The notes: generated from the sequence alone by a model not told the origin. DNA of 64,000 bases from Candidatus Kaiserbacteria bacterium RIFCSPHIGHO2_02_FULL_55_25 (GCA_001781335.1 MFLL01000001.1:25626-89625), one strand, 5' to 3'; counted from the stretch's first letter, positions 1,859 to 61,860 are shown. A program made the numbers and translations.

Positions 1859-4800
1859 ATGAAAAACTACGACCATAAAGGCATAGAGAAGAAATGGCAG
1901 GATTTCTGGACCAAGAACAAGATTTACACGACCCCTGACTCCGCGCCAAAGAAAGATAATTTCTATCTCCTCGTCGAGTTCCCGTACCCCTCTGGCAACC
2001 TCCATGTCGGCCATTGGTACGCCTTTGCGGTGCCGGACATTTTGGCCCGTTATCACCGCATGCAGGGCAAAAATGTCCTCTATCCGATAGGGTTTGATGC
2101 ATTCGGACTCCCTGCGGAAAACGCCGCCATCAAGAACAAGCTCAACCCACGCAAATGGACGGAAGGGAACATCGCGTACATGAAGAAGCAGATTCAGTCG
2201 ATGGGCACATCGTTCGACTGGTCGCGCGAGGTCGTCACGTGCGACCCGTCGTACTACAAATGGACACAGTGGCTCTTCTTACAGCTCTACAAGAGAGGGC
2301 TCGTCTATCAGAAGGAGACGGCGGTCAATTGGTGCCCCAAGGATAAGACGGTGCTCGCCAATGAGCAGGTCGTCGACGGCAAGTGCGAGCGTTGTGATAC
2401 GGAAGTCGAGCAGCGGCAGATGCTCCAGTGGAATATCAAGATTACCGATTATGCCGACCGTCTCATAGAAGACCTCGAGCCGCTCAACTGGCCGGAGCAG
2501 ATAAAAGAATCGCAAAGGAATTGGATAGGCCGCTCAGAGGGTGCGGAGATTGATTTTCCGCTTGAAATGGGCAAAAAATACAAGTTCGTCTACCTGCACG
2601 GGTATAAGAGTAAGGCTGACAGACCCCGCAATCATTGGTACAGGGCAGGTTTGGAGGCGCTTGGACATGAGGTGATAATACCGGACTTGCCGAATTCAAA
2701 TAATCCAGTCGAAGAGGAGCAAGTAAAAATTGCGATTGAGGCTACGGATTACGACGAAAACACTGTTCTTATTGGGCACAGCTTGGGTGCTGTTGTTGCG
2801 ATGAAGGCGCTTCAAAAAATGAACAAAAAGATAGCACGGCTCGTGCTTATTGCGCCTACGATTGACCCTGCGTTTCCGGGCGCTGAAGAGAGACCGTTCC
2901 ACAAAACCTTTAAATGGGACATTGACTATGAATTGCTGAAGAAACTGGCGCCCAATCGGCTTCTTCTTTCTGATCTGAAAGAGCCTGAAGTCAGAATCAA
3001 TTACATTCGCCACCTCGCGCCGAAACTGGATGCGCAACTCGTTGAAACTCACGCAACTCAAGAACACTTTACGGGTGACAAAGAACCAGACGTTCTAATG
3101 TGGTTGCGACCGACAATACGCGTGTTCACGACCCGCTCCGACACGCTCTTCGGTGCAACATACCTCGTGCTTGCGCCCGAACACCAATTTATCAGGCAGT
3201 TCTACACAAGTCAGACTTCCTTGAATAAGGCAGAGGTCCAGCAATATGTCAATACTGCATTGAAGAGGAGCGACCTTGAACGCCAGACTGACCAGAAAAA
3301 TAAAACCGGGGTGAGGCTCGAAGGGGTAAGCGCAATGAATCCTGCTACGGGGGAGAAGGTACCGCTTTATGTGGCGGATTACGTACTCGGGCACTATGGC
3401 ACCGGTGCCATCATGGCCGTGCCCGCGCACGATGAACGCGACCACGAATTCGCGGAGAAGTTCGGGCTTCCCATCAGGGAAGTTGTCGAGCCCCTCGTCG
3501 TTGCCACGAGTGGCTTTGATGCTATTCATCAGGACGAACCGTTCCAGGAGCGCAACAGCATCATTGCCATCGTGAAGCACTGGTCGGAAGACAAATACAT
3601 TTGTCTCGCGTGGAAGCCGGCAGAATGGAAAGGCTTTGTCGTTGGTGGTATCGAAAAGGGTGAAGATGCCATCGCGGCCGGTGTACGCGAGATCGTCGAA
3701 GAGACCGGGTATCAAAAGCCCACGTTCATACGTCAGCTCGGCGGCACCATTCACGACAAGTTCTATCACACGATAAAAAGGGTCAACACGTTCGCTCACT
3801 TCACGCCGCTCTTGTTCCAGTTGGAAGACGGAACACATGTCGACATCGCAGATACCGAGAAAGATTTGCATGACGTACATTGGGTCGATGCCGATAAGGT
3901 CGCGAATTTTGTGAACAGTCGCGACATCAAGGTCGCTTGGGCGCGAGTGAGCGGTAAGAATATATATACAGGGGAGGGGATACTCAGCAATTCAGGAACA
4001 TTCAGCGGATTGATGACGGAAGAAGGCCGTAAGCAGATGGCCGAGAAATTCGGACGCACGAAGAAAATGTACAAGCTGCGTGATTGGATAGTCAGCCGTC
4101 AGCGGTATTGGGGCGTGCCGATTCCGATGATTCACTGCGAGAAATGCGGCATCGTACCGGTGCCCGACAAGGACTTGCCGGTGGAATTGCCGGAGGTAAA
4201 AGATTATTTGCCGGAGGGAAGCGGGAAGTCGCCGCTCGCAAAGGTCAAAAAATTTGTGGACACGGCGTGTCCTAAATGTGGGGGGAAGGCGAAACGGGAA
4301 ACTGACACGCTCGATACATTTGTAGATTCTTCGTGGTACTTCCTGCGCTATACCGACCCCAAGAATCCCAAGGCCTTTGCATCAAAAGCCAAGCAGGCAA
4401 AATGGATGCCTATCAATCTCTACAGCGGGGGAGCGGAGCACACGACGATGCACTTGCTCTACAGCCGCTTCTGGCACAAGGCGCTCTACGACATGGGGCT
4501 TGTTGCCGACGCGGAGCCATACACCCGCCGCATGAACAGAAGCATTATTCTCGGTCCCGACGGACAAAAGATGAGTAAGTCGCACGGCAACGTAATCGAC
4601 CCCGACGAGGTGGTGGCGCGACTCGGTGCCGACACGGTACGCATGTATTTGGCCTTCGTAGGGCCGTATAACGAGGTTTCCAGCTTCCCATGGAATCCCG
4701 ACGGTGTGGTGGGTGTGAGGCGTTTTCTGGAGCGCGTATGGCGCCTGCAGGAGAAAGTCGGCACAGAGGATGCCGGCGCACTCTCCTCGGCTCTGCATAA

Positions 4801-9542: not shown

Positions 9543-10289
9543 TATAGAGGCGACGCCTCGATATACGTGAATTTTACAGCGGAAGGTCGGCATAATATTC
9601 GGCGGCCCCGATAAGTGTGTCCCGTAGCGCAGGGCGTTTTTCGAACATGGACATGGCATCAGCGTCGAGGATCGAGTTCTCCGGCCTCTTTGCCCCTTCG
9701 TAATCCGGCAGGCTACTGTATCGATATGTTTTGAGCTTTTGTTCCAATGATCCTATGTTCCTTACATATCCCGATTTCCATTCTCGCTCGAATAGTTCAG
9801 CAGGATTGAGATGAATGTATTGCACGACATACTGCAGGTACGCATCGTCATCGATGCGTTTGGAACGAAATGGTTTGATAAATACGTTTCCAACATGCTG
9901 TCGCTTCACATTGAAGTACATACTGAAGCTCGTTCCAAGTTTTTGCATGAATGTACTGATTCCTCCGTCGGTAATCTCTTGCAGTAGCAGATGAAAGTGG
10001 TTGGGCATGAGGCAGTACGCACCAATGGAGACCAATGGATTGCCACGCGGCAGGGAAAGAAGGCGTTCGTGCGACGGGCTGTACATAGCTCCACGGCGAA
10101 TTGTACGATTGCCATTGCAAATGTAGAGCGCCTGCAAAAAACGTTCGTAATCCTGCTCGGTCTCGAACACCACATTTTTGTCGATACTGCGGGTATAGCA
10201 GTGGTACCACTCATTGAAAGCGAATTCTTCTCTGCGATATGCCATTTGGGTATAGTATCACCCAATATATAGAGGCGTCGCCTTGATAT
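9543..10289. mobile_element. IS200/IS605-like or RAYT-like element 1, bounded by inverted GC-stem hairpins at 9543-9564 and 10268-10289.
   Basis: The hairpins tatagaggcgacgcctcgatat and tatagaggcgtcgccttgatat are mutual reverse complements and each is near-palindromic. They enclose a single HUH Y1 gene. Confidence 0.7.
9574..10245 (-). CDS. tnpA: HUH-superfamily Y1 transposase-like protein (IS200/IS605 TnpA or RAYT-like), paralog 1.
   Basis: It carries the YCLMPNHFHLLL (HuH) motif and a downstream catalytic-Tyr region YVVQYIHLNP. It is paralogous to the ORFs at 36615-37319 and 56689-57381. Confidence 0.8.
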   Translation of the reverse strand: MAYRREEFAFNEWYHCYTRSIDKNVVFETEQDYERFLQALYICNGNRTIRRGAMYSPSHERLLSLPRGNPLVSIGAYCLMPNHFHLLLQEITDGGISTFMQKLGTSFSMYFNVKRQHVGNVFIKPFRSKRIDDDAYLQYVVQYIHLNPAELFEREWKSGYVRNIGSLEQKLKTYRYSSLPDYEGAKRPENSILDADAMSMFEKRPALRDTLIGAAEYYADLPL

Positions 10290-10325
10290 GTGAGGATTTC
10301 CTGTGTTTTGATACAATGCTCAATG

Positions 10326-10769
10326 ATGAAAGTAATACTGTTGAAAGATGTGAAGGGGGTGGGGCAGAGGGGAAAGATTGTCGAGGTCAAGGACGGATAC
10401 GCGTATAATTTCCTGATTCCGCACAAAGCGGCCGAGCAGGCGACGCCCGAGAAAATTGCGGCTCACGACGCCAAAGAGAAACAGGAAGCCACTCTCCATG
10501 AACAGCAAAATACGGCACTCAAAATGGCGGTACAAAGTCTCAACGGGAAGACACTCACCGTGTTTGCACGCGCAACCGAGAAAGGCGGGCTTTTTAAGTC
10601 ATTAACGACATCCGATGTCGTTAAGGCAATTCTAGATCAGCTCAATATTCAGATACCAGAGACTACCGTCGAGCTCGAGAAGCCCATCAAGCAGACAGGC
10701 GAACACGCTATAAAGATAAAAACCGCGGATGTCGCGGCCTCTATCGTACTTTCTGTACAATCGGTTTAG
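10326..10769 (+). CDS. rplI: 50S ribosomal protein L9.
   Basis: The product begins MKVILLKDVKGVGQRGKIVEVKDGYAYNFLIP. A -10 box TACAAT at 10312-10317 sits immediately upstream. ATGs are present at 10323 and 10326. Confidence 0.9.
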   Translation: MKVILLKDVKGVGQRGKIVEVKDGYAYNFLIPHKAAEQATPEKIAAHDAKEKQEATLHEQQNTALKMAVQSLNGKTLTVFARATEKGGLFKSLTTSDVVKAILDQLNIQIPETTVELEKPIKQTGEHAIKIKTADVAASIVLSVQSV

Positions 10770-18894: not shown

Positions 18895-18934
18895 TACACA
18901 AGTCTGACTTCCGTACGGAAGTCAGACTTGTGTA
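18895..18934. repeat. Perfect 40-nt palindrome tacacaagtctgacttccgtacggaagtcagacttgtgta.
   Basis: I checked exact reverse-complement symmetry base by base. It lies in a roughly 490-bp non-coding stretch upstream of murG, and no T-run follows it. Confidence 0.9.
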
Positions 18935-34622: not shown

Positions 34623-36491
34623 TCAAGAGGTAGATTCTGGCGGTTTCTGATCTCCTGCAGGCGGTGTCTGTTGCTGATTCATTGCCTGACCGATCGAGCT
34701 CATTGCCGTTGAGAGCGCTTCTGAATCCGACTTGATAGCACTCGCATCAGTGCCGCCACGCGCCGTTTTGAGTGCGTCGATTTTCTCCTGCACATTCTTC
34801 TTGATGTCTTCGCTGACCTTGTCGCCATGCTCTTTGAGGGCCTTCTCGGCGGCGTATACGAGCTGGTCGGCGGCATTTTGCGCTTCTACGAGTTCTTTCT
34901 TTTTGAGGTCGCTATCAGCGTTCGCCTCCGCATCTTTGCGCATCTTTTCGACTTCTGCGTCAGAAAGTCCCGAGGCACCCTCAATGCGAATCGATTGCTC
35001 TTTGTTGGTTGTTTTGTCCTTGGCCTTGACCGTGAGAATGCCGTTGGCGTCGATGTCGAAGGTAACTTCCACCTGCGGCATGCCGCGCGGCGCCGGCGGA
35101 ATACCGTCGAGATTGAAGCGACCGAGCGACTTGTTGTCGCCTGCCATCGGGCGCTCGCCCTGCACCACGTGGATTTCCACCGACGGCTGGTTGTCGGAAG
35201 CTGTAGAAAATGTCTGTGAACGGGATGTCGGTATGGTCGTGTTGCGGTCGATGAGTTTTGTCGCGACCCCGCCCATCGTCTCGATACCGAGCGAAAGCGG
35301 AATCACATCGAGCAGAAGCACGTCTTTCACGTCGCCCTGCATGATGCCGCCCTGCAGTGCCGCACCGAGTGCCACCACTTCGTCGGGATTGACGCTCAAG
35401 TTCGGCTTTTTGCCGAAAAATTCCTCCACGGCACGCTGAATCGCCGGCATGCGGGTCTGTCCGCCCACCAAAATGACTTCATGTATCTGGTCCTTTTTGA
35501 AGGGCGACGCTTCCATCGCGCGTTTGGTGATAGCCATAGCCCGCTCCACAAATTCGGCGGTGAGTTGCTCAAGTGTGGCACGGCTCAATTTCACCAGCAG
35601 GTGCTGTGGTCCGGCATCGGTAGATGTGATGAATGGAATGTTGATTTCGGATTCCGTGGCGGTGGAAAGCTCGATTTTCGCCTTCTCGGCCGCTTCGTCC
35701 AAGCGCTGTCTCGCGAGCGGGTCTTTGAGCACGTCCACACCGCTTTCCTTCTTGAATTCAGCCGCAATCCAATTCATTATTTTCTGGTCCAAATCTTTGC
35801 CGCCGAGGTGCGAGTCGCCGTCGGTCGAGCGCACTTCAATCACGTCATCGCCGACTTCGAGCACCGAAATATCGAAAGTGCCGCCGCCGAAATCGAACAC
35901 GACGATTTTCTCGTTCTTCTTTTTGTTGAAACCATAGGCGAGAGCGGCCGCCGTCGGCTCGTTGATGATGCGCTTCACATCGAGTCCGGCGATTTTCCCG
36001 GCATCGCGCGTCGCGGCACGTTGCGCGTCGTTGAAGTATGCCGGCACCGTGATGACCGCCTCCGTAATTTTCCCTCCAAGGCGCGCTTCCGCATCGGCTT
36101 TCAGCTTCTGCAAAATCATCGCCGAAATTTCCTCCGGACGGTACCATTGTCCCGCCTTGCCGTCGGGCAGGTCACCCATCTTCACCTCAATACCGCCGTT
36201 TGACGCTTTGCGCATCTCAAACGGGATGGCCTCGCGGTCCTTAGCGACATTCGCCTCGTCAAAGTTGTGTCCGATGAAGCGCTTTATCTGAAATACCGTG
36301 TTTTTAGGATTTGTGACACCCTGCCGCTTGGCTATCTGGCCGACGAGCCGCTCGCCCGTCTTGGAGAGCGCGACGATGGAAGGTGTGGTGCGCGCACCCT
36401 CCGAGTTCTCGAGTATCACCGGTTCGCCGCCCGAAACCACCGCCATCGCGGAATTTGTCGTGCCCAAATCTATGCCGAGTATTTTTGCCAT
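34623..36491 (-). CDS. dnaK: Chaperone DnaK (Hsp70).
   Basis: It has [18 protein letters not shown] and the remaining Hsp70 signatures. Confidence 0.95.
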
Positions 36492-36573
36492 ATGTTTAAT
36501 TTTAATCGACTAATGAAGCCTCATTATGAGTGATTATATGTATCACATTGCGCCATTATATTCTTCATCAAAA

Positions 36574-37370
36574 GTTGTGCAAGTTAAACCTGCACAACCA
36601 TGCAATATATGTGTTCATTCGTCAATCGCTAAGATGTGCCAATCGCTTGGTGCTCTCCTACCGAGTAAGACGTCACGCGAAAACTCTTTAAACTCCCTCC
36701 CTTTCAGCAAAACCTCATCCGCGTTTTTCTGATCGAGAAGCGCTGAAAATAATCCAGACGACGTACCGATCAATCCCGCGAACTCATAGTGTCTCGCCCA
36801 CTCAAAAGCATCTTCAAATTCTTCAGTGGCTCGCGAAAGTCCGCCCGGATATTTTTCGAGAGGATTTTTAACATGAATATAGGCATTGAGATACTGCAGC
36901 TGTCTGTCGGAATCAACGGTACGGGCCTGAAATGATCCTTGAAACAAGGTACCGGCCTCAGCATACTGTGCATTGAAATAGGCGGACATACTTGTGCAAA
37001 GTCTCTGCATGAATCGACTAATTCCACCTTCTTCAATCTCCTGAAAAAGAAAGTGGAAATGATTGTCCAGCAGGCAGTACCCCAATATCGAGACATACGG
37101 CTTTGGGTGCGGCCAATGTTCTGGCCGTGCGAAACCCCGACGTACGTGTTCCGGTCCTATATCACGTTCCCAATTACGCGGAACATTCGCATCATTCAAA
37201 TAGCGTACCAGTTTCAGAAATCTCCAGCGATCATTGTCGCTCCTGACGATGTCCATCCGACGGGTGCCTCTGTTATATACATGGACGTATGAACCTACCG
37301 AGTATGGTTCTTTCCGCATTGACACAATGTCGCATACGTCATTACGTTGTGCAAGTTTAACTTTCACAAC
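36574..37370. mobile_element. IS200/IS605-like or RAYT-like element 2, inserted between grpE and dnaK and bounded by hairpins in direct orientation.
   Basis: The hairpins gttgtgcaagttaaacctgcacaac (36574-36598) and gttgtgcaagtttaactttcacaac (37346-37370) flank an HUH gene. The element ends 6 nt from the grpE stop. Confidence 0.7.
36615..37319 (-). CDS. tnpA: HUH Y1 transposase-like protein, paralog 2.
   Basis: It has YCLLDNHFHFLF and YLNAYIHVKNP. The ORF extends to a GTG at 37367 through the hairpin. By alignment to the two paralogs, the ATG at 37319 is the more likely start. Confidence 0.78.
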   Translation of the reverse strand: MRKEPYSVGSYVHVYNRGTRRMDIVRSDNDRWRFLKLVRYLNDANVPRNWERDIGPEHVRRGFARPEHWPHPKPYVSILGYCLLDNHFHFLFQEIEEGGISRFMQRLCTSMSAYFNAQYAEAGTLFQGSFQARTVDSDRQLQYLNAYIHVKNPLEKYPGGLSRATEEFEDAFEWARHYEFAGLIGTSSGLFSALLDQKNADEVLLKGREFKEFSRDVLLGRRAPSDWHILAIDE

Positions 37371-37376
37371 TAAATA

Positions 37377-37919
37377 TCATTTCTTGACGATGACCTGAGC
37401 GGGCCTAAGTATTCGTTCGCCCGCTTTGTAGCCGTACCGTAAAATCTTGATGATTTCGTGCGATTTGCCGGCTACATCTTCGACCTCCTGTACGGCATCG
37501 TGCAAGTGCGGACTGTACGTCTCGCCCACTTTGCCGTAGTGTTCGATGCCGTTGCGCTTCAGCGCGTCGATGAGTTGGTCCCGCACGCGCTCCATACCGC
37601 TTTTCCACCCGTCGCTCACCTCGGCCCACGCCTCACTTCCTGCCGCCATATCGAAGCTATCGAGCGCGGGAATGATGTCATGCACCAATTCTTCCCGCAG
37701 AAGCTCGCCGCTGCGCGCAGCTCGGGCCTCGGATTCGCGCTTGCTGTTCACCGCATCAGCCTTGGCTCTCTGCCAGCCGTCTAGGTACTCCTGCCTCTCT
37801 TTCTTTACTTTCTCCAGTTCGTCTTTGAGTTTCCTGATTTTTGCCTGTGCCGCGCCGATATCCCCGAGTTCTTCCTCGGGTTCAAAGTTCACTTCTTCGT
37901 CTTCGGCGTGTTTCTTCAT
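37377..37919 (-). CDS. grpE: Nucleotide exchange factor GrpE.
   Basis: A coiled-coil N-terminus is followed by the GrpE C-terminal domain. A minus-strand TATACT sits 6 nt upstream of the ATG. Confidence 0.9.
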   Translation of the reverse strand: MKKHAEDEEVNFEPEEELGDIGAAQAKIRKLKDELEKVKKERQEYLDGWQRAKADAVNSKRESEARAARSGELLREELVHDIIPALDSFDMAAGSEAWAEVSDGWKSGMERVRDQLIDALKRNGIEHYGKVGETYSPHLHDAVQEVEDVAGKSHEIIKILRYGYKAGERILRPAQVIVKK

Positions 37920-55459: not shown

Positions 55460-56590
55460 TCACTTCTCCGCAAAAGGCATCACTTTTTGTTTTTTGTCCT
55501 CTTTCGGCTTCGCCGCTGCGGGCACGGGAGCTGTGTTTTTTGCCAGTATGCCACCACCGAGACAGCGACCGCCGTCATACACAACGGCTGATTGCCCCGG
55601 AGAGATTACGTGCGGCTCGCCGAAGTCGACATACGCGCGCTTGCCTTCGCTGCGTAGCTTGATGGGAAGCGGCGTCTCCCGGTAGCGCATTTGTGCGGCA
55701 AGGCCGGTAAGGAACGACGGAGCGACTCCCGATATCCAATGCATGTCCAGCACAACGGTGCCCGCGCGCGCCGCGTCGGAACGGTTTGCCGACACTATCA
55801 CGATGTTGTTCTTGGTGTCGATACCGGTGACATAGTGCGGCGTCTTCGCCAACTGCTTCTTGGTGACGGTGAATCCGTGCCGCTGCCCGATAGTGTAGAG
55901 CGCGGCACCTTCGTGGACGCCGAGGATATGGCCCTTTTTGTCGGTCACGCGCCCCTCGGCAACAGTGATAAAGCGCTTCAGAAAATCGCGCATACTGACG
56001 TCGCCGACAAAACACAGGCCCTGACTGTCGGGCTTCTGCGCGACGGGAAGGGAGTGCGCTTTTGCATATGCGCGTACCTGTTTTTTTGTCATTGCGCCGA
56101 CGGGGAACGCGGAGCGCGAGAGGTCGCCCTGATTGAGTTGGTACAAAAAGTACGACTGGTCTTTGTCTTTGTCGACACCGCGCCACAGCTCGGGACCATG
56201 CTCGCCCTGTTTTATCTGCGCATAATGACCGGTCGCAACCACATCGGCACCCTCGGCGCGCGCCCATTTAGAGAACGCGCCGAACTTGATACTGCGATTG
56301 CACAGCACGTCGGGATTCGGTGTCTCGCCCGCGCTGTACGACGAAATCATTTTTGTGACGACCTCATTTTTGTACTCTTCGGACAAATCAATCTCTTTGA
56401 ACGGTATGCCGAGCGCTGCGGCAACGCGCATCGCATCGAGCCGGTCGCGCTGCCACGTGCACTCGATAAATTCCGGCTGCCAAATCTTTATGAAAACGCC
56501 CACAACCTTGTGCCCCTGTTCTTTGAGGAGCGCGGCACTCACCGCGCTATCCACTCCTCCCGAAAGCCCGACAAAAACCGTATGCGCCAT
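55460..56590 (-). CDS. mnmA: tRNA-specific 2-thiouridylase MnmA.
   Basis: PP-loop SGGVDSAV, catalytic cysteines, and the remaining MnmA signatures. Confidence 0.93.
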   Translation of the reverse strand: MAHTVFVGLSGGVDSAVSAALLKEQGHKVVGVFIKIWQPEFIECTWQRDRLDAMRVAAALGIPFKEIDLSEEYKNEVVTKMISSYSAGETPNPDVLCNRSIKFGAFSKWARAEGADVVATGHYAQIKQGEHGPELWRGVDKDKDQSYFLYQLNQGDLSRSAFPVGAMTKKQVRAYAKAHSLPVAQKPDSQGLCFVGDVSMRDFLKRFITVAEGRVTDKKGHILGVHEGAALYTIGQRHGFTVTKKQLAKTPHYVTGIDTKNNIVIVSANRSDAARAGTVVLDMHWISGVAPSFLTGLAAQMRYRETPLPIKLRSEGKRAYVDFGEPHVISPGQSAVVYDGGRCLGGGILAKNTAPVPAAAKPKEDKKQKVMPFAEK

Positions 56591-56644
56591 CGCACTACTA
56601 TATCAAAATTTACCAACGTACCGAGGTTTAATCTCATCATCTCG

Positions 56645-57415
56645 TGGCAAGGTAAGACCTTGCCATTTTTGTGTTATGCTTTTTGCCTATGGGCGATCGC
56701 ATCGTTTATTTCCAACCCGGAGAATGGTTCCACTGCTACAGTCGCGGTGTCGATAAAAGACGTGTATTTATATCAGCAAGCGATTATCAGCGTTTTCAGG
56801 CGCTGCTGTATGCATGTAACAATACTGATATGATTCACGTCAGTAATTACGGTCAAGGCTTTCGAAGTAAAAATCTTACTAATGTACTGAGTATTCCTCG
56901 GAGCGAATCGCTTGTTGACATCGGGGCATATAATCTGATGCCAAACCATTATCACCTTTTGTTGCGGGAACAGGTTGATGGTGGGGTGACTTCGTTCATG
57001 CGCAAAATCGGAACTGCGTACACCATGTACTTTAATATCAAGAACAAGCGCTCGGGTGCACTGTTCGAGGGTGCATTCAAAGCGAAACACGTTAAAACGG
57101 ATGCGTACTTCCGCAGAGTGTTCAATTACATTCAAGGCAATCATGCAGAACTTTCGGAGCCGCGATGGAAAGAAGGTGTCATCCAAAACGACCGGGCACT
57201 TATAGAGTCACTTCTCGCCTATCCATACTCGAGCCTTAAAGACTTCAACGGACCATCGAGACCAGAGCGCGCAATAGTTAACCGCAACTCGATACTCGAC
57301 ATCATTGACGAAATTCCGAACCCTAGAAAAATCCTTGAGGACGCTCGCATATTCGCTCGACTACACGAGGACGGCCTGTAACGCATCTACCTTATGGCAA
57401 GGTCTTACCTTGCCA
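56645..57415. mobile_element. RAYT/IS200-like element 3, flanked by inverted REP-like hairpins tggcaagg-taaga-ccttgcca (56645-56665) and tggcaagg-tctta-ccttgcca (57395-57415).
   Basis: The stems are identical and the loops are reverse complements, so the two hairpins are in inverted orientation. A third related hairpin tcatgagcaagg-aagac-ccttgctcatga lies at 57549-57577. Confidence 0.72.
56689..57381 (+). CDS. tnpA: HUH Y1 transposase-like protein, paralog 3.
   Basis: It has YNLMPNHYHLLL and VFNYIQGNHAEL. By alignment to the paralogs the start is the MGDRIVYFQ Met. Confidence 0.8.
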   Translation: MGDRIVYFQPGEWFHCYSRGVDKRRVFISASDYQRFQALLYACNNTDMIHVSNYGQGFRSKNLTNVLSIPRSESLVDIGAYNLMPNHYHLLLREQVDGGVTSFMRKIGTAYTMYFNIKNKRSGALFEGAFKAKHVKTDAYFRRVFNYIQGNHAELSEPRWKEGVIQNDRALIESLLAYPYSSLKDFNGPSRPERAIVNRNSILDIIDEIPNPRKILEDARIFARLHEDGL

Positions 57416-57487
57416 TTTACTGAGAAGCGCGGCTGACACCGCGCTGTCCACGCCACCGGAAAGTCCGACAAAAACCGTGTGTGCCAT
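57392..57487 (-). pseudogene. Duplicated mnmA 5' fragment. It encodes MAHTVFVGLSGGVDSAVSAALL, identical to authentic MnmA residues 1-22, then reads into the REP hairpin and stops.
   Basis: I compared it codon by codon with 56525-56590. There are about 10 nucleotide differences in 66 nt and all are synonymous. Confidence 0.72.
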
Positions 57488-57548
57488 TGCGTAAGGATAC
57501 TACAGTGGACAAAAGAATGAACCCCCGCGAGAGGCGAGGGTGTGTTGC

Positions 57549-57577
57549 TCATGAGCAAGGAAGACCCTTGCTCATGA
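57549..57577. repeat. Third REP-like hairpin of the element-3 family.
   Basis: The 12-bp stem tcatgagcaagg/ccttgctcatga has loop aagac, and it shares the gcaagg...ccttgc core with the element-3 terminal hairpins. Confidence 0.6.
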
Positions 57578-61673: not shown

Positions 61674-61860
61674 GGTATATGGGCGATTTCTATAGCCAAT
61701 TTGACTATTTGGAATGCCGTGGCTTTGTTGTAACAAATACCACGCCCCGCGTCAAGTGTGCAATTCGGGATTGCACAATCCACCCCTTCTCCACAGGCAA
61801 GTCCCACATCGCGGGATTTTGCCGTGAATCCAAAAAATCTCACCGTGCTAGAATCGCCAG

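Follow-up and report, generated by a model that had tools for sequence, protein, structure and literature searches.

A Probable REPtron-like Cassette Specific to the grpE-dnaK Spacer of Kaiserbacteria-like Genomes

The DNA analyzed here is a stretch of 64,000 nucleotides from Candidatus Kaiserbacteria bacterium RIFCSPHIGHO2_02_FULL_55_25 (GCA_001781335.1, MFLL01000001.1:25626-89625), referred to in the following as the window, in which a gene for a protein of the HUH/Y1 type (HUH, His-hydrophobic-His; Y1, single Tyr) lies between grpE and dnaK. The gene and the two palindromes that bracket it (36574-37370), together called element 2 or simply the element, probably constitute a REPtron-like cassette that is confined to the grpE-dnaK spacer of Kaiserbacteria-like genomes, has been gained, lost, or swapped there, and is tied into the local transcription. 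A REPtron is a gene for a RAYT (REP-associated tyrosine transposase, or TnpA_REP) with its cognate REP (repetitive extragenic palindromic) sequences; the structure of the E. coli RayT is available (PDB 4ER8). What RAYTs and REPs do is an old question, and work on them has dealt almost only with Proteobacteria, the systems being reportedly treated by Nunvar 2010, Bertels and Rainey 2011, and Ton-Hoang 2012.

Results and Discussion

Layout of the Locus

All coordinates refer to the + strand, and grpE, the HUH gene, and dnaK are all encoded on the - strand. Along that strand the order is grpE, 6 nt, palindrome, an open reading frame (ORF) of 234 aa, 16 nt, palindrome, an AT-rich spacer of 82 nt, and dnaK. 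The features are as follows.

37377-37919, - strand: grpE, 180 aa, the upstream neighbor (Pfam GrpE, 1.8e-32), with its stop codon at 37377-37379
37346-37370, no strand: upstream palindrome (hairpin) of 25 nt, sense strand GTTGTGAAAGTTAAACTTGCACAAC, starting 6 nt past the grpE stop
37349-37354, - strand: TTGCAC in the 3' arm of the upstream hairpin, putative -35 of the HUH gene, 17 nt from GACATT
37326-37331, - strand: GACATT, -10-like, separated by 6 nt from the HUH ATG, of a predicted leaderless mRNA
37320-37367, - strand: spurious 5' extension of 16 codons from the GTG at 37367 inside the hairpin; the homologue alignment starts at MRKEP
36615-37319, - strand: HUH/Y1 (RAYT-like) coding sequence, 234 aa, ATG at 37319-37317 and TGA at 36617-36615
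37053-37061, - strand: codons of the HUH motif, H87-F-H89 of NHFH, both His being invariant in 40 homologues
36879-36881, - strand: Tyr147 codon, within YIHVKNP; this Tyr, invariant like N152, is putatively catalytic, a role predicted from the Y1 family
36574-36598, no strand: downstream palindrome (hairpin) of 25 nt, sense strand GTTGTGCAGGTTTAACTTGCACAAC, 16 nt past the HUH stop
36577-36582, - strand: TTGCAC in the 3' arm of the downstream hairpin, putative -35 of dnaK, with conserved spacing to TAnAAT
36555-36560, - strand: TATAAT, putative -10 of dnaK, 13 nt past the downstream hairpin, with a leader of 63 nt to the dnaK ATG
34623-36491, - strand: dnaK, 622 aa, the downstream neighbor (Pfam HSP70, 4.5e-242)

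The gap between the grpE stop and the upstream hairpin is exactly 6 nt (37371-37376), and ORF order and coordinates agree with a preliminary description of the window, which had placed the HUH gene between grpE and dnaK, 6 nt past the grpE stop, with the element ending at 37370. The GC content of the element is 46.7%, compared with 54.3% for the window. Comparison of 36300-37600 with Rfam (E<=1) returned no match.

The HUH Protein and Its Family

The ORF between grpE and dnaK contains YCLLDNHFHFLF, and its product matches the Pfam profile PF01797 (Y1_Tnp) at 8.2e-9 and 36.1 bits, above the curated cutoff of 23. In an alignment of 40 homologues, H87 and H89 of the HUH motif, Y147, and N152 are invariant. 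The AlphaFold (AF2) model built on the homologue alignment is a confident one, with a predicted local distance difference test score (pLDDT) of 91.7, and its top fold match in the PDB is 4ER8, the E. coli TnpA_REP (RAYT) with a bound REP hairpin; 2XMA, 2VJV, and 2A6O are further top matches, the TnpA proteins of ISDra2 and IS608 ranking after 4ER8. The protein therefore has the conserved His-hydrophobic-His, the single Tyr, and the fold of the HUH superfamily, and its identification as an HUH/Y1 protein in the preliminary description is borne out by the invariant His and Tyr motifs and by the nearest fold.

The family comprises 666 clusters (50% identity) at E<=1e-30 and 9,939 at E<=1e-10. Genomic relatives number at least 513; almost all lie in metagenome-assembled genomes (MAGs) with Patescibacteria-type labels (Kaiser-, Taylor-, Nomura-, Campbell-, and Wolfebacteria, Paceibacterota), and a few lie in MAGs labelled otherwise. 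Some MAG records with Kaiserbacteria-type loci or members of the family (L010, L012, L015, L024, L047, L070, and L084, in our own locus labels) are titled Saccharibacteria, Planctomycetia, Gammaproteobacteria, or Omnitrophota; these odd titles are probably automatic labels or binning errors.

Cognate Palindromes

Both palindromes of element 2 are 25-nt near-palindromes of the pattern GTTGTGCAAG-N5-CTTGCACAAC, which has only these two matches in the window, 0 being expected from shuffled sequences. As single-stranded DNA, the hairpins fold on either strand with -6.4 to -9.0 kcal/mol (z -2.8 to -4.2). A matched flanking pair is present at 69 of 80 related loci, so that the hairpins expected in the preliminary description around other copies do occur, and a cognate palindrome on both sides of the gene, as in RAYT systems, is found in the window as well as at these 69 family loci. 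The distance from the upstream copy to the ATG is usually 10-30 nt, and that from the stop to the downstream copy is 0-20 nt. The two copies of element 2 differ at 3 positions when compared directly and at 2 when compared as reverse complements. The "direct orientation" previously ascribed to the hairpins is meaningless because the palindromes are symmetric; no up/down rule is seen for the central base at the 69 loci (TA 21, TT 16, AA 15, and AT 12).

The family consensus palindrome is yTGTRnAAGTCWGACTTnYACAr. It has a foot, TGTR at -10 to -7, that is mirrored as YACA and thus forms a double foot; the feet of element 2 are GTGA in the upstream copy and GTGC in the downstream copy, neither of them GTAG or GTGG. 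No conserved tetranucleotide flanks the palindrome at the related loci. Positions ±4, ±6, and ±7 vary by lineage, and pairing is kept there through all four types of Watson-Crick pairs with almost no G-T; since the hairpins were chosen for pairing, the percentage paired is biased, which does not apply to the diversity of pair types. This use of all four Watson-Crick pairs with nearly no G-T indicates that the palindromes are constrained at the DNA level and not at the RNA level.

At paralogue loci (8 kb each), cognate hairpins often stand in arrays by the gene, kilobases away from it, or within coding sequence. The palindrome also occurs inside the HUH coding sequence itself at L042 (~4168), L059 (~4159), L065 (~4157), L068 (~4181), L080 (~3742), L083 (~963), L054 (~1136), and L046 (~445). 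These intragenic copies lie ~160-210 nt from the start, in a variable insert region before the HUH motif, and leave the frame open.

Occupied, Solo, and Empty Spacers

The arrangement grpE-HUH-dnaK, always in the same orientation, is found at 14 of 14 orthologue loci (about 50-79% identity), namely, L001, L008, L010-L015, L021, L024, L111, L170, L171, and the P0008 contig, and all 14 orthologues are intact and of similar length. Homologues ~55% or more identical to the query all lie in the grpE-dnaK spacer, and those less similar than the orthologue set lie elsewhere. Element 2 is not a recent random insertion; its whole orthologue lineage is confined to this spacer.

Occupancy of the spacer is patchy. 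We compared 63 distinct grpE-dnaK spacers next to GrpE relatives of 51-87% identity, a set that leaves out L111, whose contig ends within its HUH gene. Fifty-seven of the 63 are short (1-190 nt) and hold neither an HUH gene nor a large insert. The spacers of the closest relatives, L093 (GrpE 87%, DnaK 96%) and L092 (78% and 93%, respectively), are short, and such empty sites in close relatives support the preliminary claim of an insertion. The L091 spacer holds a single palindrome, CTTGTGCAGGTCTGACTTGCACAAG, and a TATAAT, with no gene. At five loci, L090 (4086-4790), L142, L152, L165, and L144, an unrelated insert of ~0.8 kb (1.3 kb in L144) encodes a PaaX-like regulator (194 aa and Pfam PaaX_M at 2.7e-17 in L090) and is bracketed by 36-nt palindromes, CTCCTGTAAAyTCACCAATTGGTGnATTTACAGGAG; this cassette may be a regulator of dnaK with its operators or another mobile unit. 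In the neighbor-joining tree of GrpE, occupied loci lie interspersed with empty ones.

Solo palindromes of other specificities stand in some otherwise empty spacers (L137, L158, L144, and L102), with TCCGGGAGGTTCAACCTCCCGGA in L158 and GGAACAAGTCAGACTTGTCCC in L144, and that of L102 resembles 10600-10626 of the window. Such repeats seem to have a hotspot directly behind the grpE stop.

Discordance between Cassette and Host Genes

For some pairs of loci, the HUH proteins and the host genes disagree about relatedness. L008 and L024 are nearest to each other by DnaK (93%) and GrpE (79%), yet their HUH proteins are only 54% identical and their hairpin subtypes differ, whereas L012 and L024 share 71% in HUH and 59% in GrpE. 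The GrpE of L111 is closest to that of the window (77%), yet its HUH protein is of the other subtype (type-B), 77% identical to that of L024 and 62% to that of the window. When L024 and L008 are compared at the nucleotide level, their identity is ~78% up to the last 180 nt of grpE, drops to 55-60% there and in the cassette, and returns to 79-90% at the start of dnaK; this dip is suggestive of a cassette exchange, although the GrpE C-terminus is variable anyway. The Spearman coefficients of the pairwise identities are 0.31 for HUH-GrpE and 0.20 for GrpE-DnaK, which makes this test of co-divergence uninformative, and we therefore rely on the specific, strongly discordant pairs. In other subfamilies, HUH pairs with 70-81% identity are found in unrelated contexts, and the gene-plus-hairpin units of the family thus relocate.

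Start Codon and Transcription

The longest version of the ORF starts at the GTG at 37367, within the upstream hairpin, and encodes 250 aa; the preliminary description had noted that the ORF reads through the hairpin from an upstream GTG and had taken the extension to be spurious. The extension is indeed spurious because the homologues align from ATG 37319 with a conserved MRKEPF start: the alignment of 136 homologues, mostly 229-240 aa long, begins at the Met 16 codons past the GTG (M17 of the long product), M1, R2, and E4 being conserved, and the homologues cover 94-100% of the 234-aa version. An exact look-up of the 250-aa product gave no record. The deposited protein (Candidatus Kaiserbacteria MAG, GCA_001781605.1) has 213 aa, starts at the Met at 37256, and lacks strand β1 of the structure model. 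Judged by homology, the true start among the candidates 37256, 37319, and 37367 is ATG 37319 (234 aa), and for annotation this means that the GenBank start and the longest-ORF start are both wrong.

The hexamer GACATT (37331-37326) ends 6 nt ahead of this ATG, before which no Shine-Dalgarno sequence is visible, and from this combination we infer a leaderless HUH mRNA. In 30 of ~70 family loci, the HUH ATG is preceded at 6-7 nt by a -10-like hexamer, and the HUH mRNAs of the family may well be leaderless too. Among the window genes (crude calls), such a hexamer lies 6-7 nt before the ATG in 8 of 54 and a Shine-Dalgarno-like motif occurs in 6 of 54; leaderless mRNAs may be common in the organism.

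Most empty spacers carry a canonical TTGACA-N17-TATAAT promoter ahead of dnaK, so dnaK is commonly its own transcription unit in the clade. At the element, an arm of the downstream palindrome seems to supply the -35 of the dnaK promoter. TTGCAC (TTGCCA in L015) stands 16-17 nt before TAnAAT in 13 of 13 readable cases, i.e., 12 occupied loci and the solo hairpin of L091; in the window the two boxes are 36582-36577 and 36560-36555. The upstream palindrome has a like spacing to a weaker -10-like box in most orthologue loci, and a palindrome of this class precedes the HUH gene in all orthologues. In the HUH family as a whole, the downstream hairpin is not generally followed by an outward -10 box, and this feature is hence specific to the grpE-dnaK lineage. 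The hairpin promoters escaped a generic promoter scan, TTGCAC agreeing with TTGACA in just 3 of 6 bases, and it is the conserved spacing that argues for them. That the arrangement is kept over 13 diverged loci suggests a long-term co-option rather than a one-off activation. The preliminary description stated that the element splits the operon; the gene does sit between grpE and dnaK, but the split is probably harmless, the dnaK promoter having apparently been rebuilt. A generic scan found no intrinsic terminator after grpE, and read-through from grpE into the HUH gene is therefore possible.

Two other roles were considered for the palindromes. A function of the upstream hairpin as a transcription terminator is unsupported, since no U-tract follows it. 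The CIRCE operator of HrcA, TTAGCACTC-N9-GAGTGCTAA, and the HAIR operator of HspR, CTTGAGT-N7-ACTCAAG, were set aside, the palindrome of element 2 being unlike either consensus.

Proposed Mechanism

In the mechanism that we propose, the HUH protein would bind the palindromes when they are extruded as hairpins in single-stranded DNA and would nick and rejoin the DNA beside them through Tyr147, with a metal ion held by His87 and His89. If both hairpins were cut at equivalent points, a unit of one hairpin plus the gene would be released or inserted, the other hairpin staying in place. The cassette could also pass between genomes by homologous recombination in the conserved flanks, grpE and dnaK, and its spread may be due to the HUH chemistry, to the flanking homology, or to both. 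The solo hairpin of L091 could likewise have arisen by HUH cleavage at equivalent hairpin positions or by recombination between the two hairpins. The cassette would be tolerated through its transcriptional wiring, in which the 3' arm of each palindrome provides TTGCAC as a -35: the upstream copy would drive the probably leaderless HUH mRNA, and the downstream copy, together with the TATAAT 13 nt on, would drive dnaK.

It is doubtful, though conceivable, that the HUH protein is in addition a regulator of dnaK, binding the palindrome at the dnaK -35 either as an extruded hairpin or as a duplex. The element would then be a site-specific, self-promoting mobile module that was co-opted, and the PaaX-type cassette would fill the same slot elsewhere.

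Alternative Explanations

Three rival explanations were weighed, each of which is less well supported than the REPtron-like cassette. One is that element 2 is an autonomous insertion sequence (IS) of the IS200/IS605 type with tnpA only, moving by single-strand peel-and-paste with directly oriented subterminal hairpins at its left and right ends (LE/RE) and a short target motif in the spacer. The fold, with the TnpA proteins of IS608 and ISDra2 among the matches, the hairpins near both ends, the single-strand DNA chemistry expected, the presence/absence polymorphism, and the strict specificity of site and orientation are what such an element would show, and the ~0.8 kb of the unit is an IS200-like size. 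We nevertheless regard this explanation as unlikely. The L091 spacer retains a solo hairpin, whereas the excision of IS200/IS605 elements is generally known to remove both subterminal hairpins; the hairpins at the two ends of element 2 are one symmetric palindrome with neither an orientation rule nor a conserved flanking tetranucleotide, not distinct LE and RE structures; there is no tnpB; and, in place of near-identical multiple copies, the element is single-copy, the window paralogues being 28-42% identical with palindromes of their own. The 234 aa and the Y-x4-NP motif YIHVKNP, not a Y...Q motif, also differ from the ~152 aa and Y[IV]ENQ of TnpA_Y1 subclass 1.1 (Quentin 2018, PMC6006769), and the nearest fold is that of a RAYT. 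A typical IS200/IS605 copy was rejected on these grounds.

The palindromes could instead be double-stranded operators over two promoters in a domesticated host gene or regulatory module, in which the HUH protein or another factor controls its own gene and dnaK, mobility being incidental or extinct. Both palindromes overlap putative -35 elements at fixed spacing to -10 boxes, their perfect two-fold symmetry and lack of G-T pairs suit a dimer-bound duplex site as well as a hairpin, the spacer of some relatives holds the palindrome-bracketed gene of the PaaX-like regulator, and the 14 orthologues have remained intact at similar length. What makes this explanation improbable is that the gene with matched palindromes recurs at dozens of unrelated loci, that hairpin arrays, dispersed copies, and copies within coding sequence occur, that the outward -10 is not family-wide, that occupancy is patchy, the closest relatives having empty sites, and that the catalytic His and Tyr are invariant; the mismatch to CIRCE and HAIR points the same way. 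A single ancient insertion with vertical descent and many losses, the discordance between HUH and host genes reflecting rate variation and saturation only, would account for the site and orientation common to all orthologues, for low and noisy identities (the GrpE-DnaK correlation is itself only 0.20), and, through recombination between the two hairpins, for the solo hairpin. It is very unlikely, however, in view of the L008/L024 pair and the 71% HUH identity of L024 and L012, the like conflict at L111, the identity between L024 and L008 that falls over the end of grpE and the cassette and recovers at the start of dnaK, and the many independent losses that the GrpE tree would need.

Several observations weigh against the REPtron-like cassette itself. 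The score of the protein against the NCBIfam model NF047646 (REP_Tyr_transpos) is 28.2 bits (1.5e-6), below the cutoff of 80, and by sequence it is only a remote relative of that equivalog. A profile search of the PDB sequences gave no match, and hhalign against an approximate E. coli RayT sequence gave no meaningful alignment; the relation to the solved RAYTs is thus one of fold. The Tyr motif of element 2, Y-x4-NP, is one residue longer than the class-2 motif Y-x3-NP. REP-like dispersal is seen at paralogue loci, but the palindrome of element 2 occurs only twice in 64 kb. The GrpE tree is built from one short protein and has no support values, the discordance between HUH and host genes could come partly from rate variation, and, when occupied, solo, and empty spacers were aligned, the nearest empty site was too diverged to define the insertion boundaries. 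TTGCAC is, by its sequence, a weak -35 element. Finally, cleavage of the DNA, binding of the hairpins, and use of the promoters are all predictions.

Relation to Known Systems

The element resembles RAYT/REP systems in its Y1 HUH protein with the His-hydrophobic-His and Tyr motifs, for which a RAYT is also the nearest structural match, in the bracketing of the gene by its own cognate palindromic repeat, in the presence of several divergent paralogues per genome at low copy number, each with its own repeat family, and in the amplified and dispersed repeats of paralogue loci. It differs in its host, a member of the Patescibacteria, in a sequence too remote for the NCBIfam equivalog or a PDB profile match, in the additional residue of the Tyr motif, and in a palindrome that is not amplified within 64 kb. 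Insertion elements can form hybrid promoters through an outward -35, and REPs occur within operons. As in such hybrid promoters, the terminal repeat of element 2 gives a TTG-type -35 at 16-17 nt from a resident -10 of the downstream gene, but here the arrangement is conserved over 13 diverged loci, including the solo hairpin.

Within the classification of Quentin 2018 (PMC6006769), class 2 has the Tyr motif Y-x3-NP. Subclass 2.4 (Bertels Group 4) is described with "double-foot" REPs and intragenic REPs (PMC6006769), to which the GT[AG]G-like feet on both sides (TGTR...YACA) and the cognate repeats that sometimes lie in frame within the gene correspond. Subclass 2.1, reported without REPs (PMC6006769), is resembled in the NH[FY]H motif, the length of ~234 aa, and the YIHLNP of element 1, a paralogue in the window; this likeness is one of motifs and length. 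Group 2 and 3 RAYTs are inherited vertically as single copies (PMC5581495), whereas the gene of element 2 shows site-restricted gain, loss, or exchange with a patchy and host-discordant distribution. Our literature searches for RAYTs or REPs in Patescibacteria or the candidate phyla radiation (CPR) found no relevant description.

Paralogues and Other Palindromes in the Window

The window holds three HUH paralogues that are 28-42% identical to each other, each with its own palindrome; the other two, elements 1 and 3, are 37% and 28% identical to element 2, respectively.

9543-10299, - strand: HUH element 1, coding sequence 10245-9574, 223 aa, NHFH and the canonical YIHLNP, divergent from rplI
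9543-9563 and 10268-10290: palindromes TATAGAGGCGwCGCCTyGATAT bracketing element 1
56524-57490, + strand: HUH element 3, coding sequence 56689-57381, NHYH motif
56645-56666 and 57394-57415: palindromes ATGGCAAGGT-aag/ctt-ACCTTGCCAT bracketing element 3

On both sides of the element 3 unit lies a direct repeat of 70 nt (83% identity), which corresponds to the 5' end of an mnmA-like gene: the intact gene begins with one copy (56590 downward), and the other is an orphan stub of 24 codons (57421-57490). The duplication looks like the footprint of a homology-driven (Campbell-type) integration.

The window has 31 palindromes of at least 9 pairs, compared with 9-14 in shuffled sequences. Orphan palindromes of like design (with an AAGTCWGACTT core or TGTGCAA...TTGCACA) lie at 18895-18934, 3201-3234, 10600-10626, 57549-57577, and 61755-61779. 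The first of these is a 40-nt REPIN-like inverted doublet, and that at 3201-3234 is inside an apparent tRNA-synthetase coding sequence.

Conclusions

REPtrons are known; what is new here is the site-restricted behavior of the cassette and the predicted role of its palindrome as a -35 element of dnaK. The family is a large, undescribed one in the tiny genomes of Patescibacteria, and its cognate palindromes are unusually clean and perfectly symmetric. The occurrence of one intergenic site in occupied, solo-hairpin, empty, and alternatively occupied states provides a natural series among close relatives, with which the self-movement of a RAYT together with one hairpin can be tested. The hairpin arm that would serve as the dnaK -35 suggests a concrete route from a selfish element to host wiring, with a plausible benefit to the host. 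Were the HUH protein indeed a regulator of dnaK, the transcription of dnaK would respond to supercoiling, single-strandedness, or the level of the HUH protein, and the element would represent a RAYT with a defined host function in a swappable regulator slot before dnaK in CPR bacteria.

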